A stretch of DNA of 64,000 bases from Erysipelotrichaceae bacterium (GTDB taxonomy: Bacteria > Bacillota_I > Bacilli_A > Erysipelotrichales > Erysipelotrichaceae). The stretch spans positions 829 through 64,828 of the forward strand of contig JAFWFS010000027.1 in NCBI GenBank assembly GCA_017515475.1, written 5' to 3'. This document shows, piece by piece, positions 25,058-51,827 of the stretch. How positions within the stretch are numbered: position 1 is the stretch's first letter; each line of letters begins with the position of its first letter. The position numbers and the translations under genes are program-made. The notes under the pieces are model-generated. The model did not search any database. It was given only the letters and a program-made list of their open reading frames with translations, and had not been told where the DNA came from.

Positions 25058-25471
25058 ATGTCGTTAAGAGATAAGTGCCCGATTCTGGAATTCAAGGATC
25101 AGGGAGATGAAAGAGGGAAACTGGTTGTAATCGAAGGGGAGAAGTCGATTCCTTTTGCGATACAGCGTGTTTTCTACATCTATGGGTCGGATGCGACAGT
25201 TGTCAGAGGACAGCACGCCAACAGAGAATCGGAATTTGTTCTGATCAATGTTGCCGGCAGCAGCAAAGTCCGTATTACTGACGGTAAAGAGGAGTTTGTT
25301 GTAGAGTTGAACAGGCCGATGACGGGCATCTATATCCCGAAAATGGTCTGGAAGGATATGTATGATTTTTCCGATGACTCTGTTCTGCTTGTGCTTGCCA
25401 GTACGCACTATGATGGAAACGAATATATCAGAGACTATGACGCATATTTAGAGGAAATCAAGAATGGATAA
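25058..25471 (+). CDS. fdtA: FdtA/WxcM-type cupin, dTDP-4-keto-6-deoxyhexose 3,4-ketoisomerase
   Basis: 137 aa. Motifs include DERGKLVVIE...IPFAIQRVFYIYG...VRGQHANRE...LINVAGSSKV and LVLASTHYDGNEYIRDYDAYL. The size and motifs are typical of FdtA/QdtA. Confidence 0.8.
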   Translation: MSLRDKCPILEFKDQGDERGKLVVIEGEKSIPFAIQRVFYIYGSDATVVRGQHANRESEFVLINVAGSSKVRITDGKEEFVVELNRPMTGIYIPKMVWKDMYDFSDDSVLLVLASTHYDGNEYIRDYDAYLEEIKNG

Positions 25472-28871: not shown

Positions 28872-30479
28872 ATGAACAAAACTGTTAAAAAATACATTGA
28901 ATTATTTAAAAAGCATTCGGACTTAATCGGATATATCGCTTTGGCTCTGTTTTTTATCTTTTTGCATCTGAAGATGTATACGGTGATAGATCGACTTATC
29001 GACTCTGATATGTCTAGCGAACTTGTTCTGGCAAGGATCCTGGCATCAGAGAAGGTTTTGATTACGAAAAGCTGGTTTTATTCCAGTGAAATCAGAATTC
29101 TGAATACCAATCTTGTATTTGCACCTCTTTTCCTGATTACGAACAACTGGCATCTAGTCAGGATGATTGGAATGGCGATACTGAATATAATCCTGTTTAT
29201 CACTTTTGCTTATCTCGCAAAACAGTTAAGTATTAGGCATATTCCATGGATTGGTTTTCTGATCCTGGGATGTGTTTCCAAAGATTATTTCCTATTTGTA
29301 ACAATGGGATCGTTCTATGTTCCGCATTTTGCGATTTCTTTTATCTCTATAGGACTGATCATTGGTTTCTTTAAGGATGAGAGGAAGAATAGGAAGATAC
29401 TAAAACTGATTATTCTATTCGCATTGGCGTTTGCGGCAGGACTTGAAGGTATGAGATTAGTATCGATTACTTATCTGCCTTTGGTTCTGACTGCTATGTT
29501 GAGCTGTTTCATCAGCGAACTGGACGAGCTGAAAGAAGGCAGGTTCCGGTTGAAAGAACGGACCGTAATGCTGACGGCGGTATGCGCTTTAGGCTTTGTA
29601 TTCTCCTATGCGGGTGCCTATGTCAATTCAAACATACTTCCTGCTTTGGGATACTCCTACAAGATGGATGGTACGGATCTATATTATTCCGGTTTTGATT
29701 TTGAATCATTAGGGCAGGTCATTGACGGATGGATTGATGTGCTCGGTTATCAAAGCGACAACATGCCTGTATTCATGCCAACACAGTTGATTCTTAAACC
29801 GCTGTTTGCCTTGTTCTTCATTATCTTGTGCTGGGCAGTAATTGATATTCTTAAATATAAAGAGAAATACGATTTCTATGAGAGATTTATGAACCTGTAT
29901 TTCCTGATTGCCGCTCTGGTTATCAGTGCGCTGTTTGTTTTTACAACGACAGCTTATGTAAACCGTTATCTCTTGCCGGTTTCGGTTTTCTCCGTCTTTA
30001 CTGTCGGCATCTTCTTCTCTCATTACCGTATCGAATGGCAAAAATGGGGAATGCTGTCACTGATTGTCGTATTTATAGTAGTCAATACCAGATTCCAGAT
30101 CCATTATCAGCGAGATAATAACTGCTATACGGACGACAGTTTATTTGCCGCTGAGCAGACTATTCTTGCTAATGATTGCTTTAGCGGTTACACAATTGAT
30201 CACTGGAACGGTCATAATCTGTTTACGGAATTGACTGACGGCAAGATTGAAACTTGGAGACTAAATCAAAACGGTCTTAAAAGTATTAGCACATGGCTGC
30301 AGGCGAAGGATCATCAGACAAAAAAGCCTTCAGGCAAAGTATTTCTGCTTCTGCTGCAGGAGGAAAAAGAACTGGTTCATTTCAATGAAGATGTCAGCAG
30401 CTACATCCGTTATGAAGACAATGAAAGAATCCTATACATTTTTGACAATTATGAACAACTAAAAGGATTCATGGAATAA
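28872..30479 (+). CDS. Large polytopic membrane protein of unknown function (same apparent family as 13305..14903)
   Basis: 535 aa. It starts 1 nt after the previous stop. The loop after TM1 reads DSDMSSELVLARIL. It has many TM segments and a soluble tail of about 120 aa. Confidence 0.55.
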   Translation: MNKTVKKYIELFKKHSDLIGYIALALFFIFLHLKMYTVIDRLIDSDMSSELVLARILASEKVLITKSWFYSSEIRILNTNLVFAPLFLITNNWHLVRMIGMAILNIILFITFAYLAKQLSIRHIPWIGFLILGCVSKDYFLFVTMGSFYVPHFAISFISIGLIIGFFKDERKNRKILKLIILFALAFAAGLEGMRLVSITYLPLVLTAMLSCFISELDELKEGRFRLKERTVMLTAVCALGFVFSYAGAYVNSNILPALGYSYKMDGTDLYYSGFDFESLGQVIDGWIDVLGYQSDNMPVFMPTQLILKPLFALFFIILCWAVIDILKYKEKYDFYERFMNLYFLIAALVISALFVFTTTAYVNRYLLPVSVFSVFTVGIFFSHYRIEWQKWGMLSLIVVFIVVNTRFQIHYQRDNNCYTDDSLFAAEQTILANDCFSGYTIDHWNGHNLFTELTDGKIETWRLNQNGLKSISTWLQAKDHQTKKPSGKVFLLLLQEEKELVHFNEDVSSYIRYEDNERILYIFDNYEQLKGFME

Positions 30480-30499
30480 ACCGCTGAAAGGCGGTTTTT
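30478..30499 (+). terminator. Rho-independent terminator separating the membrane-protein run from the kds operon
   Basis: aaaccgc-tgaaag-gcggttt followed by tt, overlapping the stop codon of the preceding gene. Confidence 0.7.
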
Positions 30500-30530
30500 G
30501 TATGTAAAGATAATATCGTTTATAATAGGA

Positions 30531-31280
30531 ATGATGAAAAAGATAGCACTGATCCCTTCCAGGTACGGTTCAACCAGATTTCCTGGAAAACCCCTGGCTT
30601 TGATCAAGGGAAAGCCGATGATTCAATGGGTCGTAGAAAACATCAGGCAGTGTCCTGAAGTCGACGATGTTTATGTTGCGACCGACGACAGACGCATCTT
30701 TGATGCCGTAGAAGCTTTCGGCGGCAAGGCCCTGATGACTTCCGACAAGCATACCTGCGGTACGGACAGACTGGCGGAATGCGCCCGGATCCTGAACCTG
30801 GATGACGAGGACATTATCCTGAATATTCAGGGCGATGAGCCGACTTTCAGAAAAGAAATGGTAGAAGACCTGCTTTCGATCTTTGAGGATGAAAGCGTCT
30901 ATTTCGGCACTCTGAAAGTAGAGATTACCGATGAGAAGGAACTGAACAATCCGAATGCGGTAAAAGTAATCAACGATTTTAATGGCAATGCGATCTATTT
31001 CTCAAGATATACCATTCCGTATGTCAGGGACGAGAAAAACAGAAACATCGTAAAGCACTACAAGCACATCGGCGCTTACGGATACAAGAAATGGTTCCTG
31101 ATGAAGTATAGTGCGATGGAAAAATCGCCTCTGGAGATCTCCGAATCTCTGGAGCAGCTTCGGGCCATCGAAAACGGATATCAGATCAGGGTAAAAGAAA
31201 CGAAATACCAGACGGTCGGCGTGGATACGCCGGATCAGATACAAGAAGTCGAAAGACTGATGGAGAAAATATATGGCTAA
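30531..31280 (+). CDS. kdsB: 3-deoxy-manno-octulosonate cytidylyltransferase (CMP-Kdo synthetase)
   Basis: Motifs include [81 protein letters not shown] and VGVDTPDQ. The start was set at the internal ATG at 30531 because the track ORF from 30498 runs into the terminator. Confidence 0.9.
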
Positions 31281-32049
31281 GTTTATCCTTATTGCCGGAC
31301 CGTGCGTCATCGAATCGGAAGAACTGTGTCTGCAGGTGGCAAGCAAAGTAAAAGAAATCGCTGAAAGACTGGATCTGGATTATTATTTCAAGTCTTCTTT
31401 TGATAAAGCAAACCGTACTTCGATCTATTCCTATAGAGGCCCGGGTATTGAAGAGGGACTGAGGATTTTGAAGAAAGTCAAAGATGAAGTAGGCGTAAAA
31501 GTAACGACCGATATCCATGAACCGTGGCAGGCGGCCAAAGCGGCGGAAGTCTGCGACATGCTGCAGATCCCGGCATTTCTGTGCCGTCAGACCGATCTGC
31601 TGAAAGCGGCGGGAGAGACGGGGAAACTGATCAATGTCAAGAAAGGGCAGTTCCTGGCTCCTTGGGACATGAAGAATGTCGTAACCAAGCTTGAAGAGAT
31701 CGGATGCAAGAATTTTATGCTTTGTGAAAGAGGAAGTTCGTTCGGTTACAATACACTGGTTGTCGACATGTCGGGAATTTATGAGATGAAGAAGTTCGGA
31801 TATCCGGTCGTATTCGATGCGACCCACTCCGTACAGAAACCGGGCGGAACGGGAACGGCAACCGGTGGAAACCGGGAATATGTGGAACCTCTGGCGAAAG
31901 CGGCGATCGCAGCCGGAGCTGACGCTCTGTTCTTTGAAGTACATCCGAATCCGGACACAGCCAAATCCGATGGTCCGAACATGGTCAGGCTGGACGAGTT
32001 TGAAGAACTGCTGAAGAGAGTCATTAAAGTGTACGATGCCGTTCATTAG
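31273..32049 (+). CDS. kdsA: 3-deoxy-8-phosphooctulonate synthase (Kdo-8-P synthase)
   Basis: 258 aa. Motifs include [71 protein letters not shown] and [11 protein letters not shown]. It overlaps kdsB by 8 nt. Confidence 0.93.
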
Positions 32050-32058
32050 AGGATTAAG

Positions 32059-33024
32059 ATGGATAGATTAAATGAAGCGAAGAAAGTATTCGATATCGAA
32101 ATAGAAGCTCTACAGAAAACCAGAGACGTTTTGGGTGACGACTTTATTGGCATACTCAACGAGATATCTTCCTGCCAAGGGAAAGTCATCCTGACCGGGA
32201 TGGGGAAGCCGGGACATATTGCCGAAAAACTGGCTGCAACTTTTTCTAGTTTGGGCACGCCTTCTTTCTACCTGCATCCTGCTGAAGCGATGCATGGAGA
32301 TCTAGGAATGGTTTCGAAAAACGATGTCGTTATCGCCATCAGTTACAGCGGTGAATCCAACGAGATCATCGAGATTCTGCCGGCTATCAGACTGATCGGT
32401 GCAAAGCTGATTGCCATCACCGGAAACAGAAATTCCACATTGGCTAAGGCCAGTGATCTAGTGCAGGAACTTCCGGAATTCGAAGAAGCCTGCCACCTTG
32501 GTCTGGCACCTACCTCTTCTACAACAGTTGAACTGGTCTATGGCGATGCATTGGCGGTCGTGGCATCGGAAATGTACGACTTTAAGGATGTCGACTTCGG
32601 CAAACTGCATCCAGCCGGAGCGCTGGGCAAGAAGCTGATCCTGAAGGTCGAAGACTGCATGGCAAAGAACGAAGATCTGCCGAAGATCCATGTGGATTCT
32701 CTACTGGTGGACGCAATCAAGGAAATGACCAAGAAAGGTCTTGGCGTCGTCTGCATGGTCAATGATAACGGGATACTAAAAGGCATCCTGACCGACGGCG
32801 ATTTGAGAAGAGTCATTGAAAAGAGGGTAGACATCTATTCCGAATCGGTCAGAAACGTCATGACACCGGATCCGAAACGTACCACAAAAGACAAGTTGGC
32901 GGTAGAAGCCCTGAAGTTCATCCGCAGCAAGAACATCAACAACCTTCCGGTCGTAGATGAAGAAAACAAACTCATCGGTGTCGTCGACTGGAGACAGATC
33001 GTCAAGGCAGGAATCGTTGCATAA
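32059..33024 (+). CDS. kdsD: Arabinose-5-phosphate isomerase (KdsD/KpsF/GutQ family; SIS plus tandem CBS)
   Basis: 321 aa. The SIS motifs are GKVILTGMGKPGHIAEKLAATFSSLGTPSFYLHPAEAMHGDLG and ISYSGES.E. The C-terminus has two CBS repeats (VMTPDP...LPVVDEENKLIGVV). Confidence 0.9.
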   Translation: MDRLNEAKKVFDIEIEALQKTRDVLGDDFIGILNEISSCQGKVILTGMGKPGHIAEKLAATFSSLGTPSFYLHPAEAMHGDLGMVSKNDVVIAISYSGESNEIIEILPAIRLIGAKLIAITGNRNSTLAKASDLVQELPEFEEACHLGLAPTSSTTVELVYGDALAVVASEMYDFKDVDFGKLHPAGALGKKLILKVEDCMAKNEDLPKIHVDSLLVDAIKEMTKKGLGVVCMVNDNGILKGILTDGDLRRVIEKRVDIYSESVRNVMTPDPKRTTKDKLAVEALKFIRSKNINNLPVVDEENKLIGVVDWRQIVKAGIVA

Positions 33025-33025
33025 T

Positions 33026-33934
33026 ATGGATTTAGAAAAGATCAAAGAGCTTAGCGATGAAGTATATCGCTATATTAGAGATACGGATATGAAAAGTGTT
33101 CCGTTAGGAAGACACTTTTTTCATAATCATATCTATGCCAACGTCGAGGAATATGCGACTAAAAGAAGGCAAGATGCCCGTTTTGAATCGCATAGAAAAT
33201 ACATAGACATCCAGTACATCATTTCCGGTTCAGAGAAGATCATCGTCGATGATGTCAAGGAACTGGAAGTCATAGAGAAGTACGCTCCGGAAAGGGATAT
33301 TGCCTTTTATTATGATCGGGGTAAGGGGAAGGAATACGAACTTAAGGAGGGGGATTTCCTGATTCTCTATCCTGAAGAAGGGCACATGCCTTGTATCAGC
33401 ATCAAGGAAGAAGATCCGAAGCACGTTAGAAAGATGGTCTTTAAAATCCCATATATTCATACTAAAAAGATCAAAGCTCTGGTCATGGATGTGGATGGCA
33501 CATTGACCGATGGAAAGATCTATATGGGCAACGATGGAGAAGCGATGAAAGCTTTTGACATCAAAGACGGATACGGGATCGCCAACTATCTTCCGAAAAA
33601 AGGAATCATCCCGATCATTATTACCGCCAGAGAATCTAGAATTGTGGAGAATCGGGCAAGAGAACTGAAAATCGCTCATCTTTATCAGGGAGTGAAGGAT
33701 AAGACTCAGAAACTTCAGGAAGTGCTGAATGATCTTGACATGTCGTTATCTGAAGCGGTTTATGTTGGCGATGACGACAATGACCTGGAATGCTTCGAAT
33801 TGGTAAAGAAGAACGGCGGACTTGCTGCATGTCCTTTGAATGCTTCGGAAAGAACGCTGGCAGAAGCGGATTTCATCTCTTTGTATAGAGGAGGAGATGG
33901 GGCAGTCAGGGAATTGATTGAATGGATAAAATAG
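33026..33934 (+). CDS. kdsC: Fusion protein: YhcH/YjgK/YiaL (DUF386) cupin domain plus KdsC-type HAD Kdo-8-P phosphatase
   Basis: 302 aa counting from the ATG at 33026. Residues 1 to about 147 carry HRKYIDIQYIISGSEKI and FLILYPEEGHMP, which are YhcH-family hallmarks. Residues from about 148 to 302 carry LVMDVDGTLTDG, DIKDGYGI, YVGDDDNDLE and GGDGAVRE, the KdsC subfamily HAD motifs. Confidence 0.8.
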   Translation: MDLEKIKELSDEVYRYIRDTDMKSVPLGRHFFHNHIYANVEEYATKRRQDARFESHRKYIDIQYIISGSEKIIVDDVKELEVIEKYAPERDIAFYYDRGKGKEYELKEGDFLILYPEEGHMPCISIKEEDPKHVRKMVFKIPYIHTKKIKALVMDVDGTLTDGKIYMGNDGEAMKAFDIKDGYGIANYLPKKGIIPIIITARESRIVENRARELKIAHLYQGVKDKTQKLQEVLNDLDMSLSEAVYVGDDDNDLECFELVKKNGGLAACPLNASERTLAEADFISLYRGGDGAVRELIEWIK

Positions 33935-34947: not shown

Positions 34948-35658
34948 ATGAAAACAGTTATTTTAGCCGGAGGTCTGGGAACCAGACTATCAGAAGAAAC
35001 ACGTTTTGTTCCGAAACCGATGGTGCAGATCGGCGGATATCCGATGCTTTGGCATATCATGAACATATATTCAAAGCACGGTTTCAATGACTTTGTCATC
35101 TGTGCCGGGTACAAACAGGAAGTCATTTTCGAATGGGCAGAGAAGAACAAGGATCTGCTGGATCAGTGGAATATTGAGATCGTTGATACTGGTCTGAATA
35201 CAATGACCGGAGGCAGAATCAAGAGGATTCAGCCATATATTGGGAACGAGGATTTCATGCTGACATATGGGGACGGTCTTTCTGACATCAATATCAAGGA
35301 TCTGCTGAAGTATCACTATAACAGAAACAGGACACTGACGATAACGGCTTATCTTCCGGAGAACAGGTTCGGAATTTTGAAATTCGATGAGAACGACAAC
35401 GTTCTGTCCTTTAGTGAGAAAACCAGAGACGACAGCGACTGGATCAATGCCGGATTTATGGTCTGCAGTCCGGAGGTCTTCGATTATCTGGAAGGGGATG
35501 CGACCGTATTTGAAAAAGAGCCTATGCAAAGGATAGCCCAAAGCGGATGCATGGCTGCCTACAAACATCACGGATACTGGCAATGTATGGACACTTTAAG
35601 AGAAAAACAGATCCTGGAAGAATTATGGAAAAAAGGGGACGCTCCGTGGAAGCTTTAA
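34948..35658 (+). CDS. rfbF: Glucose-1-phosphate cytidylyltransferase
   Basis: 236 aa and colinear with Salmonella RfbF. Motifs include MKTVILAGGLGTRLSEET..PKPMVQIGGYPMLWHIM, TGGRIKR, TYGDGLSD, HHGYWQCMDTLREK and LW..GDAPWK. Confidence 0.92.
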   Translation: MKTVILAGGLGTRLSEETRFVPKPMVQIGGYPMLWHIMNIYSKHGFNDFVICAGYKQEVIFEWAEKNKDLLDQWNIEIVDTGLNTMTGGRIKRIQPYIGNEDFMLTYGDGLSDINIKDLLKYHYNRNRTLTITAYLPENRFGILKFDENDNVLSFSEKTRDDSDWINAGFMVCSPEVFDYLEGDATVFEKEPMQRIAQSGCMAAYKHHGYWQCMDTLREKQILEELWKKGDAPWKL

Positions 35659-36689
35659 AGGATTTTTACAGCAATAAAAGAGTACTGATAACCGGTCATA
35701 CCGGTTTTAAAGGGAGTTGGATCTCACAGATCCTTTTAAATTTCAGGGCAGAAGTATGTGGCATTGCGTTAAGACCAAAAACGGAACCAAATCTGTTTAC
35801 TTTACTGAATCTTGATAAAAGAATGAATAATCATTATGTTGACATAAGAGATTACGATACGATTAAGAAGATATTTGATCAGTTTGAACCGGAGATTGTT
35901 TTGCATCTTGCCGCTCAGCCGTTAGTGATCGATTCATATAAGGAGCCCAGATATACTTACGATGTAAACATCATGGGTACCGTCAATATCTGCGAATGCG
36001 TCAGGCTTTCCGACAGTGTAAAATCGTTTGTGAACATTACTACGGATAAGGTTTACGAAAACGTTGAGGATGAAAATCATTATTACAGGGAAGATGAAAA
36101 ACTGAACGGCTATGATCCTTATTCCAACAGCAAGTCCTGCAGTGAACTGGTCACTCAGTCATACATAAAATCTTTTTTTAAAATCCCCGTATCGACCTGC
36201 AGAGCAGGAAATGTGATCGGTGGAGGCGACTTTTCTGCAAATAGGATCATGGTTGATTCATATTTTGCCGCCAGCAAAGAAAGGCCTATCAAGGTAAGAA
36301 ATCCTAATTCTGTCCGTCCTTATCAACATGTGCTTGAGGCTGACATGTTTTATCTGATGCTGGCGATGAAACAGTACATCGATCCTTCTTTGGCGGGGCA
36401 TTACAACATCGGCCCAAACGAGAACGATTGCATCACATCAGGAGAGATAGTTAAACTGTTCTGTCAGTATTGGCAGGGTGCGAGTTATGAATTCGCTAAC
36501 GTAGATGGCCCTCACGAAGCAAATTTCTTAAAACTGGATTCTTCCAAGGCAAGAAATACCCTAGGCTGGAGACCAAAGTGGAGTGTAAACGAAGCTGTTG
36601 AAAAGACGGTCGAATTATATAAAACAATCAGTAGAAATGATGATATAATGAGTATCTTAAATCAGCAGATAGATGCTTATTTGGGATAG
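35625..36689 (+). CDS. rfbG: CDP-glucose 4,6-dehydratase
   Basis: Motifs include KRVLITGHTGFKGSWIS, HLAAQPLV, NITTDKVYEN, GYDPYSNSKSCSELV, RAGNVIGGGD, VRPYQHVLE and FLKLDSSKA...LGW.PKW. The start is uncertain: either the ATG at 35625 or the in-frame GTG at 35646, which has a ggggac SD-like sequence upstream. The track start at 35547 is unlikely. Confidence 0.9.
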   Translation: MEKRGRSVEALKDFYSNKRVLITGHTGFKGSWISQILLNFRAEVCGIALRPKTEPNLFTLLNLDKRMNNHYVDIRDYDTIKKIFDQFEPEIVLHLAAQPLVIDSYKEPRYTYDVNIMGTVNICECVRLSDSVKSFVNITTDKVYENVEDENHYYREDEKLNGYDPYSNSKSCSELVTQSYIKSFFKIPVSTCRAGNVIGGGDFSANRIMVDSYFAASKERPIKVRNPNSVRPYQHVLEADMFYLMLAMKQYIDPSLAGHYNIGPNENDCITSGEIVKLFCQYWQGASYEFANVDGPHEANFLKLDSSKARNTLGWRPKWSVNEAVEKTVELYKTISRNDDIMSILNQQIDAYLG

Positions 36690-36697
36690 GAGGTTGG

Positions 36698-37816
36698 ATG
36701 ATGATTAAAGTTTCTAGAGGATGCTGTGGTCAGGAAGAGCTGGACCAGGTCAAGGAAGCGTTTGACTATGGTTATTTTGGACTTGCGTATAAAGTAAATG
36801 AATTCGAGCAGGAGATCCAGAAATTCATACAGACCGACAGGGAAGTAATCTGTACGTGCAACGGTACGGCTGCGCTGCATCTTGCTTTGGACGCGATCGG
36901 CGTTTCCGAAGGAGATGAAGTGATTCTTCCGTCCTTTACCTTTGTGGCTACCGCTCAGGCAATCAGTTCCTGCGGAGCAAATCCGGTCTTTGTCGATGTC
37001 GATGAAGAAACGATGCTGATCGATATAGAAGATGTCAGAAGAAAAATCACAGATCGAACCAAGGCAATTGTTCCGGTTCACTATTCTGGAGCCGTATGTG
37101 ACATGGAAGCTTTGCTGAAGATTAAGGAAGAATATGGAATCCGCATCATTGAAGATGCCGCACATGCTTTTGGTTCTGTATACAAAGGAAAGAAAGTCGG
37201 CTCTTTCGGCGACATCGCCTGCTTCTCTTTCGATTCTATTAAGGTCATGACCTGCGGTGAGGGCGGATGCATTATTACCAACGATAAGGATGCCGCTGAA
37301 CTGATCCGGATCAAGAGACTGCTGGGAATCGATCGAAAGACGATGCATACGACCGATTGGAAGAAACGTTCCTGGAAATATGATGTACCTGTAACAGGAT
37401 ATAGATATCATATGTCAAATATCAACGCGGCTATCGGCCTGGCGCAGATAAAAAAGCTCAATGGTTTTATCGATTATCGTAAAAAAGTCGCAAAATCTTA
37501 CAATAGCCTGCTTTCTGATATCCCGGAGATAAAACTCCCGGTATATGACATAGATACAATAACCAACTTCATGTACGTTATTCGTGTTAAAAACGGTAAA
37601 CGCGAGGAATTAAAGCAGTATTTGATGGACCATGATATTGAATCCGGCATCAGCTATATCCCGTGCCATACGTTCAGTCTCTATAAAGGAAACAATCATC
37701 TTCCTGCGACGGAAAAAATATACGAAGAACTTCTGTGTCTTCCGATTCATCCGGAGATTACAGAATCCGATCTAAAAGAAGTATCTGACAGAATTCACGA
37801 GTTTTTTAGGAAATGA
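36698..37816 (+). CDS. DegT/DnrJ/EryC1-family PLP-dependent sugar aminotransferase (probably acting on a CDP-4-keto-6-deoxyhexose)
   Basis: 372 aa. Motifs include NGTAALHLAL, IIEDAAHAFGS and a FSFDSIKVMTCGEGG segment containing the PLP lysine. At 372 aa it is shorter than my recollection of the RfbH/E1 3-dehydrase (about 437 aa). I therefore read it as a true aminotransferase. The substrate is inferred from operon position only. Confidence 0.7.
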   Translation: MMIKVSRGCCGQEELDQVKEAFDYGYFGLAYKVNEFEQEIQKFIQTDREVICTCNGTAALHLALDAIGVSEGDEVILPSFTFVATAQAISSCGANPVFVDVDEETMLIDIEDVRRKITDRTKAIVPVHYSGAVCDMEALLKIKEEYGIRIIEDAAHAFGSVYKGKKVGSFGDIACFSFDSIKVMTCGEGGCIITNDKDAAELIRIKRLLGIDRKTMHTTDWKKRSWKYDVPVTGYRYHMSNINAAIGLAQIKKLNGFIDYRKKVAKSYNSLLSDIPEIKLPVYDIDTITNFMYVIRVKNGKREELKQYLMDHDIESGISYIPCHTFSLYKGNNHLPATEKIYEELLCLPIHPEITESDLKEVSDRIHEFFRK

Positions 37817-38379
37817 TACAGAAATTCAGCTTTATTGAGACCCCCTTAAAAGGAGCGTTTATAATCGATCCATTCTATTCCTCGGATCATAGAGGAGGAT
37901 TTATAAAGGATTACAATATCGATGTTTTCAGACAGAATGGAATTGACCACGAACTGAAAGAAGTTTTTTATACTGTTTCCTATAAAGGCGTGATCAGAGC
38001 AATTCATTTTCAGTTGGAACATCAGCAGGCAAAACTGGTTAGATGTGTTAAAGGGAAAATCTATGACGTGATCGTTGATCTGCGTAAAGATTCTGATACC
38101 TTTGGTAAATGGACAGGATATTACCTGAGTGAAGAAAACAGAAAAGAATTGTATATTCCTGAATACTTTGGACACGGATATTTGGTTTTGGAGGACTCAA
38201 TCGTTTCCTATAAATGTGGTGAAGTCTTTTATGCGGATGGAGACAGCGGGATCATGTACAACGACCCGGATATTGCAATAGGCTGGCCATATGATGAGAT
38301 CGGTGGAATAGAGAACCTGATTATCAGTGATAAAGACAGGAATCTAATGTCCTTTCAGGATTACTGCGCAAATGAATAA
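37813..38379 (+). CDS. RmlC-family cupin, NDP-4-keto-6-deoxyhexose 3,5-epimerase-like
   Basis: 188 aa. Motifs include ETPLKGAFIIDPF...DHRGGFIK, RAIHFQ....QAKLVRCVKGKIYDVIVDLR, YIPEYFGHGY and SYKC. It overlaps the upstream aminotransferase by 4 nt. Confidence 0.8.
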   Translation: MIQKFSFIETPLKGAFIIDPFYSSDHRGGFIKDYNIDVFRQNGIDHELKEVFYTVSYKGVIRAIHFQLEHQQAKLVRCVKGKIYDVIVDLRKDSDTFGKWTGYYLSEENRKELYIPEYFGHGYLVLEDSIVSYKCGEVFYADGDSGIMYNDPDIAIGWPYDEIGGIENLIISDKDRNLMSFQDYCANE

Positions 38380-39778
38380 AACAAAAAAGGGATACAGCGT
38401 ATTAAAGGCGATATCATGGTATGCAGTCGGTAACGTTTTTGTTAAGAGCATATCCTTTTTTGTATTGCCCCTTTTCAGCAATCTGATGTCGACTGCCGAT
38501 TATGGCGTCTATACGATATTTACGTCAAACGCCGCTCTGATTGATTCCATTATCATTTTTGGATTAGCTCCGACTATCCGCATGGCAAAATACGATAATG
38601 ATACCGATTATGAACTATATACCTCAACCATTGTCGTCATACCGATTCTTCTGGTTCTTTTATTGGCACTTGTAAGCAATGTCTATATGCTGTTCAATCC
38701 GGTTTTGATGTCTTTGAATCGAACGGTATGGAACTGGATGTTGTTTTACTGTGCTACCAATGTGATCTGCATCATTCTTTCTAATCGGTTCGTCCTTGAT
38801 GGGAGATACAAGGCATACTTTATTTATCTTCTGATCAATACCCTCATTGCAATTGGATCGTTTCTATTGCTTGCCAAATTTGTCTTTCTCGAAAATACCT
38901 ATATGGCGCGGATTGTTGGCCAGTCTGCAGGAAATTTCTTAAGCATTCTCTTCTTTGTATGCACAATTGGCTATAAAGGAATCAGTCCGGGCTATCTGAA
39001 GAAAGGAGTTGTTTGGGGTGCTCCGTTGGTGATTCATTCTTTTATGATTTCGTTGTTTGGCCAGATGGATACTCAGCTGATTAACGTTTTTTCTGAGTTT
39101 TCCGAGCTTGGAGTATATGGCATGGCCACAACACTTGGTTTAGTACCGGCAACCCTGGAAGCGACTTTCGAAAGTGCGTGGAGTCCATGGTTTTTCAATA
39201 AAATGAATGTTGGAGATACGGAAAAGATTCGGGAAACAAACAACACGTACTTCACGATTTTTGCTGTAATACTCGGAGAATTCATGCTGATACTGCCTGA
39301 ACTGGTACGTTTTCTTAATCGGTCCTACTGGGATTGCGTCTTCTATCTGCTTCCGATTACTATCAACAGTTTTATTGAACTGATCTATCTGGTACCGTTA
39401 AACATCCAGTATTATTACAAAAACACAAAAAATATCATGTTTGCGACAGTGATTGCAACTTTACTTGATGCCTTGATGGTCGTATTGTTCATACAGCTGT
39501 ATGGTTTTTACGGCGCTGTTTACGCCAAGACAATCTCCAAGATTGCTCTGGTTGCTATTCACGACTATTCTGCGAAGAAACTGGATCAAAACAACTACTT
39601 CAGCAGTAAGCTTTTTGTCCTGTTGCTTCTAATACTGTTCGCAATAGATGCCATTGTCGTGCTTTTTACCGATTTCGCCGCACTGAGACTTTTCCTGTTT
39701 GCGGCCATCGGCATAGTTGCCCTGACATTTACGATCAGAAAAAGAAAAGAACTACTACAGATGTTTAATGGAGGATAA
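38372..39778 (+). CDS. wzx: Wzx-type oligosaccharide flippase (MOP superfamily, polysaccharide biosynthesis protein)
   Basis: 468 aa with about 12-14 hydrophobic spans. The N-terminus SWYAVGNVFVKSISFFVLPLFSNLMSTADYGVYTIF is typical of the Polysacc_synt family. Confidence 0.8.
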   Translation: MNKTKKGYSVLKAISWYAVGNVFVKSISFFVLPLFSNLMSTADYGVYTIFTSNAALIDSIIIFGLAPTIRMAKYDNDTDYELYTSTIVVIPILLVLLLALVSNVYMLFNPVLMSLNRTVWNWMLFYCATNVICIILSNRFVLDGRYKAYFIYLLINTLIAIGSFLLLAKFVFLENTYMARIVGQSAGNFLSILFFVCTIGYKGISPGYLKKGVVWGAPLVIHSFMISLFGQMDTQLINVFSEFSELGVYGMATTLGLVPATLEATFESAWSPWFFNKMNVGDTEKIRETNNTYFTIFAVILGEFMLILPELVRFLNRSYWDCVFYLLPITINSFIELIYLVPLNIQYYYKNTKNIMFATVIATLLDALMVVLFIQLYGFYGAVYAKTISKIALVAIHDYSAKKLDQNNYFSSKLFVLLLLILFAIDAIVVLFTDFAALRLFLFAAIGIVALTFTIRKRKELLQMFNGG

Positions 39779-40849
39779 ATGAAAACTGCCATTGTTTGTA
39801 ACACGCCTTTACAGGTTATGAATGCGCTAAATATCGTAATCAATGATGTAGAATGCTGTAAAAACGACTGCGATCTATATCTGATTATGAATTTTCGTGA
39901 TTCGGACAGAATAGCTGATCGTGTGGAAACAACCGAACTATTTAGACACGTTTTCCGTTTCAGATCTACAGGTGAAAAGATCACTTCGTTTATAGATCTG
40001 TTAAGTTCTCGAAAGATTCTATCTACGTATGAGTTTTCTGACAGATCATTCATGGATATGCGCTATGACAATCTGTTTGTTTCTGACCGCAACCTGCTTG
40101 GTGTTGCATTAAACTATATTAGCAGATGTAGAAATGTTTATGTCTTTGATGACGGTATCGCCACCTATAGCGGGAACAGCATCTCTGATCCTTCAAATTA
40201 CCGATATCCTTTCCTGAATCGTCTATTTAGAAGCGATGTTCTTTCCTATAAGATCCGAAAGCTTTTTGTCAACAACAAAGAATTCTGCCGGTCACAGATT
40301 TCTGATCACATTGAACAGCTTCCTTTACTTGGCAAAAAGAATCCCGTTTTTGAAGTACTGATGAGAGTTTTTGATTTCAATGTTTCAAGTGAAATAGCGA
40401 CAAAAAAAGTAATAGTTCTAGAACAGCCTTTAGATAAAAAAGAGAACTACAACCAAAAGAAATTCAAAGAAATACTTGATGAAGCATCCGTGGATACATC
40501 TGATACGCTGGTTAGACTTCATCCTGTACAGAAAGACATAGAATATGGCGATTATCGGATTGATCACATCAATAATCTATGGGAATTAGAATGTATCAAG
40601 AGCATAAGCAACGAACACACACTAATCAGTTTTTATTCTTCCGCACAGTTTTCTCCAAAACTGATTGCTGGGAAAGAACCCTACGTTGTTTTCTTGTATA
40701 AGCTCTTTCTAAGCCGTTACGACAGCAGAGAATGTCAGATGTTTGAGAAGATGGTTAATGAATTCAAAGAAAGCTATGAAGATGACGGCAAGATATTTGT
40801 TCCAGAGAACATTGATGAATTGAAAGAAATAATTAAAAAAAGAGGATGA
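39779..40849 (+). CDS. Bacterial sialyltransferase-like glycosyltransferase (GT52-like; carries DDG and HP motifs)
   Basis: 356 aa. The N-terminus MKTAIVCNTPLQVMNALNIV resembles the GT52 start. F-D-D-G lies at 40145-40156. VIVLEQPL precedes R-L-H-P at 40514-40525, with a later FYSSAQFS segment. The order and spacing parallel the Neisseria Lst blocks as I recall them (FDDGTGN, ILLGSP, APHPRQ, FFSGAA). This is recognition by eye only. Confidence 0.6.
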   Translation: MKTAIVCNTPLQVMNALNIVINDVECCKNDCDLYLIMNFRDSDRIADRVETTELFRHVFRFRSTGEKITSFIDLLSSRKILSTYEFSDRSFMDMRYDNLFVSDRNLLGVALNYISRCRNVYVFDDGIATYSGNSISDPSNYRYPFLNRLFRSDVLSYKIRKLFVNNKEFCRSQISDHIEQLPLLGKKNPVFEVLMRVFDFNVSSEIATKKVIVLEQPLDKKENYNQKKFKEILDEASVDTSDTLVRLHPVQKDIEYGDYRIDHINNLWELECIKSISNEHTLISFYSSAQFSPKLIAGKEPYVVFLYKLFLSRYDSRECQMFEKMVNEFKESYEDDGKIFVPENIDELKEIIKKRG

Positions 40850-41775
40850 AGAAGGACGTTATCACGATCGTTGTGCCTGTCTATAATACGGAAGAATACC
40901 TAGAGGAATGTCTGGATTCTTTAATTCGTCAATCATACAGTGATATTCATATAATATGCGTAAATGACGGAAGTACAGACGGTTCTCAAGAGATTATTGA
41001 AAGATATAAAAATGAGGATTTAAGGGTATCTTCATACCTGATCCCCAATAGCGGAGCGGCAAGTGCAAGAAATTATGGAATCGATAGATTTATGGAAGAC
41101 AGGGAATCCGATTTGATAACATTCGTCGACAGTGACGATACGGTTGAAGTCGATTTCATTGAAAAGCTATATGAAACCATGTTGGAGTGTAATGCGGAAG
41201 TTTCAACGTGTGACCTTTATCGCTTTAAAGGTGACAGGGGGACCAGAAAGAAAAAACTTTACACATCCAAAGAGGCTACATATGAGTATTTTAAAGATCG
41301 GGTTTTTTATGAGTCTCCCTGCTGTAAGCTTTTAAAGAAAGAAACAGTGAATAGGGTTCGTTTTAGAAATGGAAAGCATTATGAAGATACTTTTATCTGT
41401 TATCAGTGGCTAAGCAATGTGAACAGCGTGGCTCATATTGATTACGCTTCATACAACGTGAGAGTCAGAAGCGGTTCTTCTACCAGAGCACAATATGGAA
41501 ATCATAATTATGACAAGGTTGAAGCGGGTCTTGAAATCTACGAGCATTACAAAGGGACGGAATTTGAAAATCTAGCATATAACAAGTATTTAGGCATTCT
41601 GTTTTATTTCATTATCAAGACAAACGGAATTAAAAAGACTGTCAACAAGAATAAAACCGCAATTGATGAGGCAAAAAACCTGATAAAGAAAAACGGGTTT
41701 AGAAATGCCGGGTTGCGTTTCTATCCGTTTATCCTTGCAACAAAATTGAATTTAATATCTATTCCTAGAATATAA
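40846..41775 (+). CDS. GT2 family glycosyltransferase
   Basis: 309 aa. Motifs include ITIVVPVYNTEEYL, ICVNDGSTDGS, SGAASARNYG and FVDSDD. Confidence 0.85.
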   Translation: MKKDVITIVVPVYNTEEYLEECLDSLIRQSYSDIHIICVNDGSTDGSQEIIERYKNEDLRVSSYLIPNSGAASARNYGIDRFMEDRESDLITFVDSDDTVEVDFIEKLYETMLECNAEVSTCDLYRFKGDRGTRKKKLYTSKEATYEYFKDRVFYESPCCKLLKKETVNRVRFRNGKHYEDTFICYQWLSNVNSVAHIDYASYNVRVRSGSSTRAQYGNHNYDKVEAGLEIYEHYKGTEFENLAYNKYLGILFYFIIKTNGIKKTVNKNKTAIDEAKNLIKKNGFRNAGLRFYPFILATKLNLISIPRI

Positions 41776-49894: not shown

Positions 49895-50908
49895 ATGAAA
49901 GAAATAAACAGAAATAAAAAGACAGAAAACGAAAAAGCGCCAATCCTTTATCTGGTCGTTCCTTGTTTTAATGAAGAAGAAGTGATCGAAAAAAGCGCAG
50001 GAATCATGCTAAAGAAACTGCAGTCTCTGGAGAAACAGAAAGTCATTTCCAAAGACAGCAAGGTTTTTTTCGTTAACGACGGAAGCAAAGATGCGACAAA
50101 AGAGATTCTGATCTCTCTGGTAGAGAAAAACAGAGAGTTTGCCGTTTTGAACTTTACGACCAACTACGGGCATCAGAACGCGATTTATGCCGGAATGATC
50201 ACCGCAAAGGATTACGCGGATATCGTGGTAACGATCGATGCCGATCTGCAGCAGGACATTGAAGCACTGGATCGTTTCATAGCGGCCTATCAGGCAGGCA
50301 ATGATGTTGTATACGGTGTTAGAAACGACCGAAATACGGATGGTGCATTCAAGAAGTTCACTGCAACCATGTACTACCGTTTCATGCATCTGCTTGGCTG
50401 CAAGATTATCTCCAACAGCGCGGACTACCGTCTGCTTTCCAAGAAAGCCCTGAACATCCTTGCGGAATACAAGGAATCCAATCTTTTCTTAAGAGGCCTG
50501 ATTCCTTCCATCGGACTGAATTCCGATATCGTCTATTTCGACGTCAAGGAAAGAGAAGCCGGATCTTCGAAGTACACTTTCAGCAAGATGGCGAATCTGG
50601 CGATCGACGGGATCACTTCCTTTTCGATCGTTCCTCTGCATCTGATCTGCATTACCGGGTTCATTATTGTTGCCTTAAGCGGCATCATGCTGGTGGTCAG
50701 CCTGGTTGAGTGGGCACAGGGAAAGAACGTGCCGGGCTATACGACGCTGCTGGTAGTCATGCTGATCGCGACCGGACTGATCATGCTTTCACTGGGTATT
50801 ATCGGTGAGTATATCGCCAAGATCTACACCGAAGTGAAGGGAAGACCGCGTTATACGATCGATTCTATTATCTGGAACGAATCTACAAAAAATGGAAAAA
50901 AGAAATAA
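49895..50908 (+). CDS. GtrB/ArnC/GacI-type GT2 (polyprenyl-phosphate sugar synthase with 2 C-terminal TM helices)
   Basis: 337 aa. Motifs include YLVVPCFNEEEVI, FVNDGSKDAT, TTNYGHQNA, TIDADLQQD, two TM helices and GIIGEYIAKIY...GRPRYTI. Its G+C is visibly higher than that of its neighbours. Confidence 0.85.
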   Translation: MKEINRNKKTENEKAPILYLVVPCFNEEEVIEKSAGIMLKKLQSLEKQKVISKDSKVFFVNDGSKDATKEILISLVEKNREFAVLNFTTNYGHQNAIYAGMITAKDYADIVVTIDADLQQDIEALDRFIAAYQAGNDVVYGVRNDRNTDGAFKKFTATMYYRFMHLLGCKIISNSADYRLLSKKALNILAEYKESNLFLRGLIPSIGLNSDIVYFDVKEREAGSSKYTFSKMANLAIDGITSFSIVPLHLICITGFIIVALSGIMLVVSLVEWAQGKNVPGYTTLLVVMLIATGLIMLSLGIIGEYIAKIYTEVKGRPRYTIDSIIWNESTKNGKKK

Positions 50909-51827
50909 GCAGATCGACATACATGCGGATGATTATGCTCTAACTGTACACACGTCTCAGGACATGCTGGAATGCATGAAAGAAGGTGTGCTGGACAGCT
51001 TCAGTATCATCTGCAATACTTCATCTTTTGATGAGTGCATGGAAATGCTAAATCAGGCAATTCCTTCTTTTTCTTTTCTTCCGCTGATTTCTGTCCATCT
51101 GAATTTGGTGGAAGGTTTTGCCTTATCTGAAGGCCTTCGGCTTATTGCAGAAAACGGAGTTATGTCTTTAGGCTGGAAAGGCGTTTGGCTGATGGCTTTT
51201 ACCGGAAAAAGAAGGCAACTGAAAGAAGAACTGAAGAAGGAAATCAAGGCCCAGATCGACAGGACTTGGGAAGTCGCAAAGAAGTGCTTTCAGATTGCCG
51301 AAGAGAATCATATTCCTTATGAACAGAATCATCTTAGAATCGATTCCCATCAGCATATACACTCCATTCCGATCGTCTGGGAAGCTTTGATGGAGGCAAT
51401 TGAAGAAAACGGATACGAAGTGGAATATATCAGGAATCCAAAAGAACCGCTGCTTCCTTTCATAAAAGAGATATCCCTTTGGAAGAGTTACCGGCCTGTC
51501 AATTTCATCAAGAACAGAATACTGATGCTGTATTCGAAAGAAAACGACAGTTACTGTGACAGAAACCATATGCAGAAGATGTACATGTGGGGTCTAGTCA
51601 TGAGCGGGAAAATGGACTTTGAAAGAATTAAAAAGATTTATCCTGAAATGCTCAAGAAAACAGAGAGAGATAATCGCAGACTGGAAATTCTTTTCCATCC
51701 TGGAACAGCCTTGAAAGAAGAAAACAAGGGCGAAATCGCAAGAGAATCCATGGAAGATTTCTATCTGTCTGATGGCAGGAACATCGAGAAGCAGACTCTG
51801 CTGCAGATAAAAAATATAGTGTGTTAG
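50892..51827 (+). CDS. YdjC/ChbG/HpnK-family carbohydrate deacetylase
   Basis: 311 aa. It has IDIHADDYALT near the N-terminus and the metal-binding block RIDSHQHIHSIP, both YdjC-family hallmarks. It overlaps the upstream GtrB-like gene by 17 nt. Confidence 0.7.
   Translation: MEKRNKQIDIHADDYALTVHTSQDMLECMKEGVLDSFSIICNTSSFDECMEMLNQAIPSFSFLPLISVHLNLVEGFALSEGLRLIAENGVMSLGWKGVWLMAFTGKRRQLKEELKKEIKAQIDRTWEVAKKCFQIAEENHIPYEQNHLRIDSHQHIHSIPIVWEALMEAIEENGYEVEYIRNPKEPLLPFIKEISLWKSYRPVNFIKNRILMLYSKENDSYCDRNHMQKMYMWGLVMSGKMDFERIKKIYPEMLKKTERDNRRLEILFHPGTALKEENKGEIARESMEDFYLSDGRNIEKQTLLQIKNIVC

Follow-up and report, generated by a model that had tools for sequence, protein, structure and literature searches.

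The bacterial enzymes closest in structure to the protein described here are the polysialyltransferases of family GT38, which include E. coli NeuS, N. meningitidis SiaD and M. haemolytica MhPST (PF07388; PDB entry 5wc6). These are polymerases with an electropositive groove, encoded in ABC-transporter (kps) loci, and they use CMP-Neu5Ac as the donor, with neuA/B/C. In MhPST the catalytic base is E153, H291 is the CMP-stabilising histidine and S339/T340 form the phosphate pair (PMC5517516); the histidine lies in a (K/R)xHP motif (PMC12887879, PMC5517516). The GT52 enzymes Lst/NST of Neisseria (PF07922; PDB entries 2yk4 and 2yk6) are monotransferases that act on a lipid-linked glycan and carry D/E-D/E-G and HP motifs. 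Families GT99 (WbbB), GT107 (KpsC and KpsS) and GT140 (KrkA) comprise retaining beta-Kdo transferases that use CMP-Kdo, share the (K/R)xHP cytidine site and have a C-terminal domain that resembles that of MhPST (PMC12887879). Two further systems are relevant to the donor. The plant GT29 protein RCKT1/MGP2 has been proposed as an inverting RG-II transferase which uses CMP-beta-Kdo to form alpha-Kdo (PMC11288761), and the Maf flagellin nonulosonic acid (NulO) transferases of G. kaustophilus and C. botulinum accept CMP-Kdo (bioRxiv 10.1101/2020.06.03.131540).

The window, by which we mean the whole 64-kb stretch of DNA analysed, encodes a 356-residue protein for which a preliminary description had proposed a sialyltransferase-type enzyme with CMP-Kdo as the donor. 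Kdo is an acidic sugar with eight carbons, and the gene belongs to a cell-wall sugar locus of Gram-positive type. The protein shares with GT38 the GT-B fold, the catalytic base, the (K/R)xHP motif and the S-S/T pair, and inversion would be expected. It differs in belonging to a Wzx-type locus beside a CMP-Kdo pathway, without neuABC, and in being an acidic protein that is predicted to act as a monotransferase. The D/E-D/E-G and HP motifs are common to GT52, and the predicted role resembles that of Lst/NST. The reasoning applied to RCKT1/MGP2, a sialyltransferase-family member in an organism without sialic acid, is the same as that used here, but that protein is a eukaryotic Golgi enzyme with a modified GT-A fold and has neither sequence nor fold kinship with ours. 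The Maf proteins are likewise NulO transferases from Gram-positive bacteria, but they have a GT-A/GT42-like fold and a protein acceptor, and their Kdo transfer is a promiscuous side activity in E. coli, whereas Kdo appears here to be the native donor, encoded in cis.

The features of the locus are listed in Table 1. The gene directly follows wzx, as previously described: the wzx stop codon TAA (39776-39778) abuts the ATG of the transferase gene, and a Shine-Dalgarno sequence lies within the 3' end of wzx. As read from these junctions, the two genes appear to be translationally coupled, and in most homologous loci a wzx homolog adjoins the transferase gene. The ATG of the downstream GT2 gene overlaps the transferase stop codon TGA (ATGA, also read from the sequence), and this GT2 gene is kept in L001 and L002/L003. 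The transferase has no TM-like segment, a pI of 5.9 and 50 Lys plus Arg compared with 54 Asp plus Glu residues, and we take it to be a soluble GT-B glycosyltransferase of the cytoplasm.

Table 1. Positions of the transferase gene, its motifs and the neighbouring genes in the window.
Feature	Position	Strand	Remarks
kdsB, CMP-Kdo synthetase	30498..31280	+	TIGR00466 236 bits vs cut-off 155; PF02348; tblastn
kdsA, Kdo-8-phosphate synthase	31273..32049	+	TIGR01362 402.5 vs 314; NF003543 418 vs 242
kdsD/kpsF, arabinose-5-phosphate isomerase, SIS + CBS	32059..33024	+	TIGR00393 321.6 vs 203.7; PF01380, PF00571
YhcH/DUF386 (anomerase-like)-KdsC Kdo-8-P phosphatase fusion	33026..33934	+	TIGR01670 131.8 vs 106.95; TIGR00022 100 vs 45.5
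CDP-hexose pathway: RfbF-type glucose-1-P cytidylyltransferase, 4,6-dehydratase, DegT aminotransferase, RmlC-like epimerase	34948..38379	+	TIGR02623 306 vs 300; TIGR01221; Pfam
Wzx-type flippase, 468 aa	38372..39778	+	PF01943, PF13440; 10 TM-like segments
GGAGGA Shine-Dalgarno	39770..39775	+	Within wzx 3' end; sequence read directly
Candidate CMP-Kdo transferase	39779..40849	+	ORF, 356 aa, ATG start
Q12 in N-terminal C-N-T-P-L-Q loop	39812..39814	+	Aligned with MhPST Q44
D124-D125-G126, D/E-D/E-G motif	40148..40156	+	D125 = predicted catalytic base
R246-L247-H248-P249, (K/R)xHP	40514..40525	+	Predicted CMP binding and leaving-group stabilisation
S287-S288, S-S/T pair	40637..40642	+	Predicted CMP phosphate coordination
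GT2 glycosyltransferase	40846..41775	+	PF00535

Sequence searches with the 356-residue protein returned no significant match in Pfam, NCBIfam or PDB sequences, and PF07388 did not match it even at E<=10. The gathering cut-off of this GT38 profile (23.3 bits) is, however, passed by four of 18 close homologs, among them P0011 with 32.3 bits and P0018 with 29.2 bits, and by five of ten further relatives. The preliminary description had let its reading depend on a profile match to a sialyltransferase family; taken literally, the protein alone has none, but the family to which it belongs does have one, because these homologs pass PF07388. The attribution to GT52 made at the same time is rejected, as PF07922 matches neither the protein nor any of the 18 homologs at E<=1, and the profile link is with GT38. 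More direct comparisons added nothing to this link: profile HMMs built from 18 and from 27 homologs found nothing among PDB sequences and did not reach 5wc6, phmmer with the PF07388-positive homolog P0025 gave only spurious reverse-transcriptase matches in the PDB, hhalign of the family profile with NeuS gave a probability of 1.3%, and pairwise BLASTP to NeuS gave only short matches centred on the motifs.

The AlphaFold model (pLDDT 92.3, pTM 0.91) superposes best with MhPST, chain A of 5wc6, which is the top Foldseek match (E 1.3e-7, TM 0.55/0.52). The GT52 enzyme NST follows (2yk6 and 2yk4) with TM values of 0.40-0.45 and high r.m.s. differences. A WaaA structure does not occur among the best 50 Foldseek matches, and the corresponding test for GT30 in Pfam and NCBIfam was also negative. 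The model and the profile results suggest that the protein belongs to a large family that is a distant relative of GT38 and has a looser relationship to GT52; for the 356-residue protein the GT38 link is transitive, through its homologs, and structural. The family comprises approximately 3,000 clusters at 50% identity, its members include fusions to Wzx, Wzy or GT2, and we found no name for these proteins in public sources.

The motifs that had led to the preliminary assignment are present, with F123-D124-D125-G126 at 40145-40156, H248-P249 at 40520-40525 and CNTPLQV near the N-terminus. On their own such motifs are weak evidence, because they are frequent by chance: in composition-preserving shuffles of the sequence [DE][DE]G occurred in 19%, HP in 13% and both in order in 1.3%, although [DE][DE]G followed 90-150 residues later by [KR]xHP occurred in just 0.035%. 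They become meaningful because they are conserved in 27 homologs and fall on residues of MhPST whose catalytic roles were established by experiment. Since single-sequence comparisons were not significant, residues were mapped through an unconstrained MAFFT alignment of the family with NeuS and the MhPST chain sequence. In this alignment D124/D125/G126 correspond to E163/E164/G165 of NeuS and E152/E153/G154 of MhPST, R246/H248/P249 share columns with MhPST K289/H291/P292, and S287/S288 with MhPST S339/T340. D125, G126, H248, P249 and S287 are invariant in the 27 homologs, at identities down to 19%, R/K246 is conserved and position 288 is Ser or Thr throughout the aligned sequences. The Q12 column is not invariant, being mostly Gln but Lys in six members of the Kdo clade defined below and His in three distant sequences. 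E269, W268 and P10 are invariant across the transferase family, but not in NeuS or MhPST. The D/E-D/E-G motif of the model lies in a loop between strand 119-123 and helix 127-130. As aligned, the protein retains the full sialyltransferase-type catalytic set, with D125 as the putative base, the R246/H248/P249 site and the S287/S288 clamp.

The genes of a complete CMP-Kdo pathway lie in cis 6 kb upstream, in agreement with the preliminary description, and each of the four enzymes (KdsB, KdsA, KdsD and KdsC; 30498-33934) scores above its NCBIfam curated cut-off. The listed ORF for the DUF386-KdsC fusion begins at 32957, but the ATG at 33026 is the likely start because homologs are 302-310 residues in length and kdsD stops at 33024. 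KdsB is the sole CMP-type cytidylyltransferase within the 64-kb window. By tblastn there is no homolog in the window of NeuB, of a NeuC/LegG-type epimerase, of PseG or of the DmpG-type aldolase HMGL, and neither tblastn nor Pfam scans of most ORFs revealed a NeuA-type gene or another ulosonate synthase; the earlier statement that the window has no neuA/B/C, legionaminic acid (Leg) or pseudaminic acid (Pse) genes thus holds. The remaining glycosyltransferases of the window are assigned by Pfam to GT2, GT4 or GT1. Among the other genes of the window are some for wall polysaccharides (Rgp-type, ABC-2 and DUF2142); Pfam scans of most ORFs showed no lpx or waa gene, and tblastn found neither a Bac_transf-type initiating phosphoglycosyl transferase nor a Wzy_C/EpsG polymerase in the window. 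Several ORFs without a Pfam match have 8-11 TM-like segments and could encode Wzy or GT-C proteins. Two ORFs upstream of kdsB (27041-28870 and 28872-30479) were considered as Kdo users and rejected, being polytopic with 10-11 TM-like segments.

A genome scan yielded just four homologous loci, from Erysipelotrichaceae and Lachnospiraceae MAGs, and a metagenome scan yielded 26. In approximately 25 classifiable loci, a count that leaves out L029, L032 and L036 as unclassified, the neighbouring ulosonic acid pathway tracks the phylogeny of the transferase. Transferases beside Kdo genes (the window, L001, L002, L003/L010 and L022, with the same kds block) share at least 48% identity (48-55%). Those beside a KdsB-like cytidylyltransferase and HMGL (L004, L007, L008, L011, L014, L023-L027 and, in part, L019) share 30-43%, and those beside NeuB-type Leg/Pse/Kdn pathways (L005, L013, L015-L017, L031, L033, L034, L037, L038 and L043) share 22-34%. 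The exception is L041 (25% identity), which has a GDP-heptose-type context. In the tree, the proteins from Kdo contexts, of which only four are independent, form one clade, those from HMGL/KdsB-like contexts are adjacent and those from NeuB contexts are basal. The metagenome scan, with its 26 loci, yielded no further member of the Kdo clade.

In our view these data probably describe a cytoplasmic CMP-Kdo monotransferase, likely to be inverting, which acts before Wzx flipping; the donor is read from the gene context alone. The preliminary proposal is supported in this respect by the fold, the catalytic residues, the pathway in cis and the correlation between clade and pathway. The enzyme would bind a 2-keto-3-deoxy acid sugar activated as its CMP derivative, which for this clade would be CMP-beta-Kdo supplied by the kdsB-kdsA-kdsD-(DUF386)kdsC block. 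It would add one Kdo residue to a lipid-linked oligosaccharide on the cytoplasmic side of the membrane, after which Wzx from the coupled upstream gene would flip the completed unit. The pI, the adjacency to wzx and the fusions of relatives to Wzx, Wzy or GT2 favour, we infer, a monotransferase. Direct displacement with inversion would be expected from the precedent of GT38, GT52 and GT80, and the linkage formed would then be alpha-Kdo. Probably the host is a monoderm resembling Erysipelotrichaceae, where Kdo would form part of a wall or capsular polysaccharide and not of LPS. Such a donor has not so far been described for this enzyme type in bacteria. The earlier view that it is atypical for the fold needs qualifying, given that GT99, GT107 and GT140 share the CMP site and a related C-terminal domain and that Kdo transfer has been proposed for plant RCKT1.

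It could be argued that genes beyond the window supply a CMP-nonulosonic acid (Neu5Ac, Leg, Pse or Kdn) as the donor and that the local Kdo serves another enzyme. The catalytic set is that of sialyltransferases, more distant members of the family adjoin NeuB-type Leg/Pse/Kdn pathways, and the survey for NulO genes covers the 64-kb window alone. We nevertheless consider this unlikely. The classifiable loci encode their ulosonate pathway in cis, with one type per locus, and the sampled members of the Kdo clade all have kds genes and none has NeuB. Furthermore, from its annotation the locus appears to hold no other plausible cytoplasmic user of CMP-Kdo, and a monoderm host has no LPS in which to use Kdo.

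It is similarly improbable that the enzyme uses CMP-Kdo but retains the configuration, forming beta-Kdo in a double displacement with an Asp adduct, the mechanism of GT99, GT107 and GT140, even though these families share with it the (K/R)xHP site and have the MhPST-like C-terminal domain (PMC12887879). The protein has an invariant D/E-D/E-G base in its N-terminal domain, which aligns with the base of an inverting enzyme, and the combination of a sialyltransferase-like N-terminal domain with this motif leads us to predict inversion, unlike in GT99, GT107 and GT140. Inspection of alignment A1 showed no invariant acidic residue approximately 30 residues before the HP motif, position 215 being Glu, Gly, Asp or Ser and position 219 Asp, Glu, Ala or Asn. 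The Kdo-transferase families to which the preliminary description had pointed for comparison also proved remote: WbbB (5fa0) is a poor structural match, at Foldseek rank 47 with a TM value of 0.23, hhalign gave probabilities below 1% for KpsS and KpsC (0.2% each), and PF05159 did not match the protein.

A CDP-activated 6-deoxy-amino-hexose, made by the RfbF, dehydratase, DegT and RmlC-like enzymes and bound as CDP in the cytidine pocket, is a very unlikely donor, because the test of co-occurrence failed. In its favour, the window, L001 and L022 all carry this pathway in the interval from the kds genes to wzx, related genes are found in L004, L007, L008 and L014, and MhPST binds CDP as a donor analogue (PMC5517516). 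However, homologs of RfbF, DegT and RmlC are absent within 10 kb on either side of the transferase gene in L002, L003/L010 and L011, which keep the transferase and a KdsB-type pathway. In the literature consulted (PMC5517516, PMC12887879) the set of base, HP and S-S/T is also specific to CMP-ulosonate transferases, and several GT2 and GT4 enzymes are at hand for NDP-hexoses. A processive polymerase forming an oligo- or poly-Kdo chain, suggested by analogy with GT38 as the nearest characterised family, seems highly improbable for an acidic protein whose pI of 5.9 (9.7 for NeuS), taken as a proxy, implies that it is not electropositive overall, as a protein binding a polyanion would be expected to be. 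Its gene, moreover, shares a Wzx-type locus with those of many further glycosyltransferases, and relatives are fused to Wzx, Wzy or GT2.

If the preferred reading, an inverting CMP-Kdo monotransferase, is extended to the family, then, as a tentative proposal that we regard as somewhat less probable than its negation, this clade may represent the first inverting (alpha-) Kdo transferase from bacteria outside GT30/GT73, built on a GT38-like sialyltransferase scaffold and adding Kdo to a wall or capsular polysaccharide that monoderm Bacillota export through Wzx. The large family around it would consist of CMP-ulosonic acid monotransferases whose donor has switched among Leg/Pse/Kdn, Kdo and a product made by an undescribed pathway. 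This pathway, which would consist of a DmpG-type pyruvate aldolase and a KdsB-like cytidylyltransferase, may lead to Kdo or a Kdo-like acid independently of KdsA. Literature searches on Kdo in Gram-positive wall polysaccharides, on teichulosonic acids and on alpha-Kdo transferases in Wzx pathways revealed no precedent.

Few transferases are known for Kdo outside LPS and group 2 capsules, or for legionaminic and pseudaminic acids, and knowledge of the cognate NulO transferases has been called scarce (PMC5420450, PMC7439481). A donor that can be read from the neighbouring pathway would help to annotate the surface-glycan loci of gut and rumen Bacillota, in their thousands. Relatives that differ in donor (Kdo, Leg, Pse or as yet unknown) would form a natural series for the study of donor specificity, for which N8, D103, N188 and N225 are candidate positions. 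An inverting alpha-Kdo transferase, if confirmed as such, would be useful for glycoengineering. The reading also implies that Kdo is present on the surface of monoderm commensals, which would matter for recognition by the immune system, since Kdo is generally taken as a marker of Gram-negative LPS.

The 356-residue protein encoded directly downstream of wzx (the target protein; coordinates are collected in the table below) had been described as carrying two sialyltransferase motifs. Both were found where they had been placed, as F123-D124-D125-G126 and H248-P249. The gene is translationally coupled both up- and downstream, and its stop codon (TGA) overlaps the start codon (ATG) of the following GT2 gene. 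The two bare motifs alone are weak evidence: in composition-preserving shuffles [DE][DE]G arises by chance in 19%, HP in 13%, the two in order in 1.3%, and [DE][DE]G with [KR]xHP 90–150 residues further on in 0.035%. The motifs are meaningful because of their conservation and position.

Searches with the target protein itself returned only noise from Pfam at E ≤ 10 and no match among NCBIfam models or PDB sequences. A homolog search identified 18, and later 28, full-length relatives (19–99% identity), for which no names were found in public sources. The gathering cut-off of PF07388 (α-2,8-polysialyltransferase, GT38) is passed, over nearly the whole length, by four of the first 18 homologs and by five of ten further relatives, with modest family-to-GT38 E-values (about 1e-7 at best). 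PF07922 (GT52) matched none of these relatives; the GT52 link of the preliminary description was not borne out, and the profile link is instead to GT38 by way of the homologs. An exhaustive profile search gave 2,991 clusters (50% identity) at E ≤ 1e-3 and 1,151 at E ≤ 1e-30, which places the target in a large and uncharacterised family.

The AlphaFold2 model, built from the 18-sequence alignment, is confident (mean pLDDT 92.3, pTM 0.91) and predicts two Rossmann-like halves; the protein has no TM-like segment. A Foldseek comparison with the PDB ranked 5wc6, the Mannheimia haemolytica polysialyltransferase (MhPST), first (E 1.3e-7, TM 0.55), followed by the Neisseria LOS sialyltransferase NST (GT52) and then by generic GT-B enzymes. 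The β-Kdo transferase WbbB (GT99) appeared no higher than rank 47 (TM 0.23).

Catalytic residues were predicted by aligning 29 family members with MhPST and the Escherichia coli K1 polysialyltransferase NeuS (neuS from UTI89), using MAFFT L-INS-i without constraints. The MhPST chain sequence and numbering were recovered from the PDB alignment via NeuS, and chain index + 19 reproduces the published E152/E153, H291 and S339/T340. Target residues D124/D125/G126 align with MhPST E152/E153/G154 and NeuS E163/E164/G165, R246/H248/P249 with K289/H291/P292 and K285/H287/P288, and S287/S288 with S339/T340 and S337/S338, respectively. The roles described for MhPST are catalytic base (E153), stabilisation of the CMP leaving group (H291) and help with the phosphate (S339/T340) (PMC5517516); (K/R)xHP is a cytidine-binding motif common to sialyltransferases and retaining Kdo transferases (PMC12887879). 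D125, G126, H248, P249 and S287 are invariant among 27 homologs, down to 19% identity; Q12, which aligns with MhPST Q44, is not invariant. In the model D124-G126 lie in a loop between strand 119–123 and helix 127–130, in agreement with the β5/α5a catalytic loop described for MhPST.

The complete CMP-Kdo pathway previously noted upstream was confirmed by curated NCBIfam models. The kds block is followed by a GT2 gene, a CDP-hexose pathway (RfbF-type cytidylyltransferase, dehydratase, DegT and RmlC-like), wzx and the target gene. Downstream are more GT2 and GT4 genes, an acyltransferase and a GtrB-like GT2 with DUF2304 and DUF2142; farther out in the window are an ABC-2 transporter pair, RgpF, RmlA, FdtA with DegT, and GDP-mannose/fucose genes. 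The reported absence of sialic, legionaminic and pseudaminic acid genes from the window also held: tblastn with NeuB, NeuC/LegG-type epimerase and PseG queries gave no match, and queries with cytidylyltransferases and an HMGL-like (DmpG-type pyruvate aldolase-like) protein gave nothing besides KdsB. No lpx or waa genes were seen in the window.

Several other features of the window were noted. KdsC has an N-terminal YhcH/YjgK/YiaL (DUF386) domain whose closest named NCBIfam model, 'N-acetylneuraminate anomerase', matched below cut-off, and the fusion is kept in every Kdo-type locus. KdsB uses the minor β-pyranose form of Kdo, which the DUF386 domain may supply as a Kdo anomerase. Five polytopic ORFs (about 490–610 residues, 8–11 TM-like segments, no Pfam match) may represent new GT-C, Wzy or ligase-type proteins; the last two have counterparts upstream of kdsB in L002 and L003 (48–52% identity). 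The HTH–dehydrogenase architecture is unusual for a sugar-nucleotide dehydrogenase, and wall-polysaccharide genes surround both a TOD1/MUCI70 domain, whose family is known mainly from plants, and a YdjC-like protein. The GC content is 36.3% for the transferase gene, 46.1% for the kds block and 42.1% for the whole window, and between-locus identity is 77–87% for kds genes but only 42–55% for the transferase and wzx. The locus has a mosaic appearance, in which the sugar-supply module is conserved and the transferase and flippase appear either fast-evolving or exchanged. Loci homologous to this one occur in MAGs of Erysipelotrichaceae and Lachnospiraceae, and the KdsA of the window is 86–87% identical to that of the Erysipelotrichaceae MAG locus; a monoderm Bacillota is therefore the probable host.

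Coordinates of features in the window and in comparison loci (contigs with target homologs)
Feature	Source	Coordinates	Strand	Basis
Target ORF, start ATG	window	39779-40849	+	
Shine-Dalgarno GGAGGA ahead of target	window	39770-39775	+	sequence reading
wzx stop TAA, abutting target ATG	window	39776-39778	+	sequence reading
FDDG motif	window	40145-40156		
HP motif	window	40520-40525		
KdsB	window	within 30498-33934		TIGR00466, 236 bits (cut-off 155)
KdsA	window	within 30498-33934		TIGR01362, 402 (cut-off 314)
KdsD/KpsF	window	within 30498-33934		TIGR00393, 322 (cut-off 204)
KdsC fused to YhcH/DUF386	window	33026-33934 (ORF listed from 32957)		TIGR01670, 132 (cut-off 107)
DUF386-KdsC fusions elsewhere	L001; L002; L022	2243-3157; 6662-7594; 26-934		
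Polytopic membrane ORFs	window	17508-18983; 20476-22011; 25464-27005; 27041-28870; 28872-30479		
Cro/C1-type HTH (N-terminal) fused to complete UDP-glucose/GDP-mannose dehydrogenase	window	10999-12474	-	
TOD1/MUCI70 glycosyltransferase-like domain	window	59200-60147		
YdjC-like protein	window	50892-51827		
HMGL-like/KdsB-like loci	L004; L014; L007; L008; L011	5573-8592; 5628-8590; 13630-16005; 11739-15065; 12667-14998		
NeuB-like synthase, CTP_transf_3, KdsC-like phosphatase	L034	166-2500		
Target homolog	L041	9032-10129		25% identity
GDP-heptose-type genes	L041	1595-5519		

Homolog neighbourhoods on slightly more than 40 contigs were assigned to classes by tblastn markers. The first class, kdsB-kdsA-kdsD-(DUF386)kdsC, accompanies proteins 48–100% identical to the target (window, L001, L002, L003/L010 and L022, which is truncated by the contig end) and represents only four independent Kdo-type contexts. 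The second (30–43%; L004, L007, L008, L011, L014, L023-L027 and partly L019) has a KdsB-like cytidylyltransferase and an HMGL-like protein of about 525 residues, often with a HAD phosphatase or a PfkB kinase, and lacks KdsA and NeuB. The third (22–34%; L005, L013, L015-L017, L031, L033, L034, L037, L038 and L043) has NeuB-type pathways, pseudaminic-type in L005 and legionaminic-type in L016, L017 and L013. No classified locus has two pathway types. A neighbour-joining tree groups the Kdo-context proteins in a single clade next to a grade of HMGL contexts, with the NeuB contexts at the base. Donor pathway thus follows transferase phylogeny, as would be expected of donor-specific enzymes. Exceptions occur: L029 has only CTP_transf_3, about 6 kb from the homolog, and L041 has GDP-heptose-type genes and no CMP-ulosonate pathway within about 10 kb. 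These markers left L032 and L036 unassigned.

In the second class, whose transferases form a sister clade, the L011 cytidylyltransferase scores above the TIGR00466 kdsB cut-off and that of L004 reaches the cut-off only of the KdsB subfamily model NF003952. Among proteins of solved structure, the HMGL-like protein is closest to a 'putative aldolase' and to DmpG-type 4-hydroxy-2-oxovalerate aldolases. Together with its KdsB-like partner, this class II pyruvate aldolase-like protein makes up a candidate non-orthologous pathway leading to Kdo or to a Kdo-like 3-deoxy-2-ulosonic acid. The L034 gene set, which adjoins a family member of 26% identity, resembles a pathway of the Kdn type (Kdn, deaminated neuraminic acid). 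The L041 neighbours include an NTP_transferase-HAD fusion, a GmhA-like SIS protein, a GHMP kinase, a 4,6-dehydratase and LicD; similar heptose-type genes occur downstream in L002 and L003.

Assignment of CMP-Kdo as the probable donor is guilt by association, drawn from gene context. A nonulosonic acid donor made by genes elsewhere in the genome is unlikely, as it would break the rule of a pathway in cis, which holds in every classifiable locus. Still less probable is that the cytidine pocket serves a CDP-hexose: L002, L003/L010 and L011 have no RfbF, DegT or RmlC homologs within 10 kb on either side, yet retain the transferase and a KdsB-type pathway. Retaining β-Kdo transfer is made less likely by the invariance of the base motif and by poor similarity to WbbB, KpsC and KpsS; in addition, inspection of the alignment by eye showed no acidic residue that is invariant upstream of the HP motif. 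A poly-Kdo polymerase is likewise disfavoured by the acidic pI (5.9, compared with 9.7 for NeuS), the Wzx-type setting, and the existence of relatives that are fused to Wzy (P0032, P0047, P0049, P0074; Wzy_C), to a Wzx-type flippase (P0033) or to GT2 (P0053). No other plausible user of CMP-Kdo was seen in the locus: the other glycosyltransferases are GT2, GT4 or GT1, and the Pfam-less ORFs (8–11 TM-like segments), among them the pair immediately preceding kdsB, look GT-C/Wzy-type with extracytoplasmic action.

Known Kdo transferases include the GT30 (WaaA) and GT73 families. Retaining families have been named as GT99, GT107 and GT140 (PMC12887879). The target is predicted to work like a GT38/GT52-type enzyme; it falls outside GT38 on three points (its own profile score, donor context and polymerase character) and likewise outside GT52, GT99/GT107 and GT30. 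A literature search for a bacterial enzyme of the GT38 or GT52 kind whose native donor is Kdo found no report. Conceptual precedents are the plant GT29 protein RCKT1, which belongs to a sialyltransferase family and has been proposed to transfer Kdo from CMP-β-Kdo with inversion (PMC11288761), and the promiscuous Kdo transfer of Maf enzymes of Gram-positive bacteria (bioRxiv 10.1101/2020.06.03.131540).

In the mechanism that we propose, KdsD, KdsA, KdsC and KdsB would supply CMP-β-Kdo, which the target would bind via R246/H248/P249 and S287/S288. D125 would take the proton from an acceptor hydroxyl on a lipid-linked oligosaccharide, and a single, inverting transfer would give α-Kdo, after which the completed unit would be flipped by Wzx. 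Across the wider family (2,991 clusters), the transferase domain is found at the C-terminus of a Wzy-type polymerase in many proteins of about 850 residues. Together with the Wzx and GT2 fusions, these suggest that the addition of ulosonic acid is closely coupled with flipping and polymerisation.
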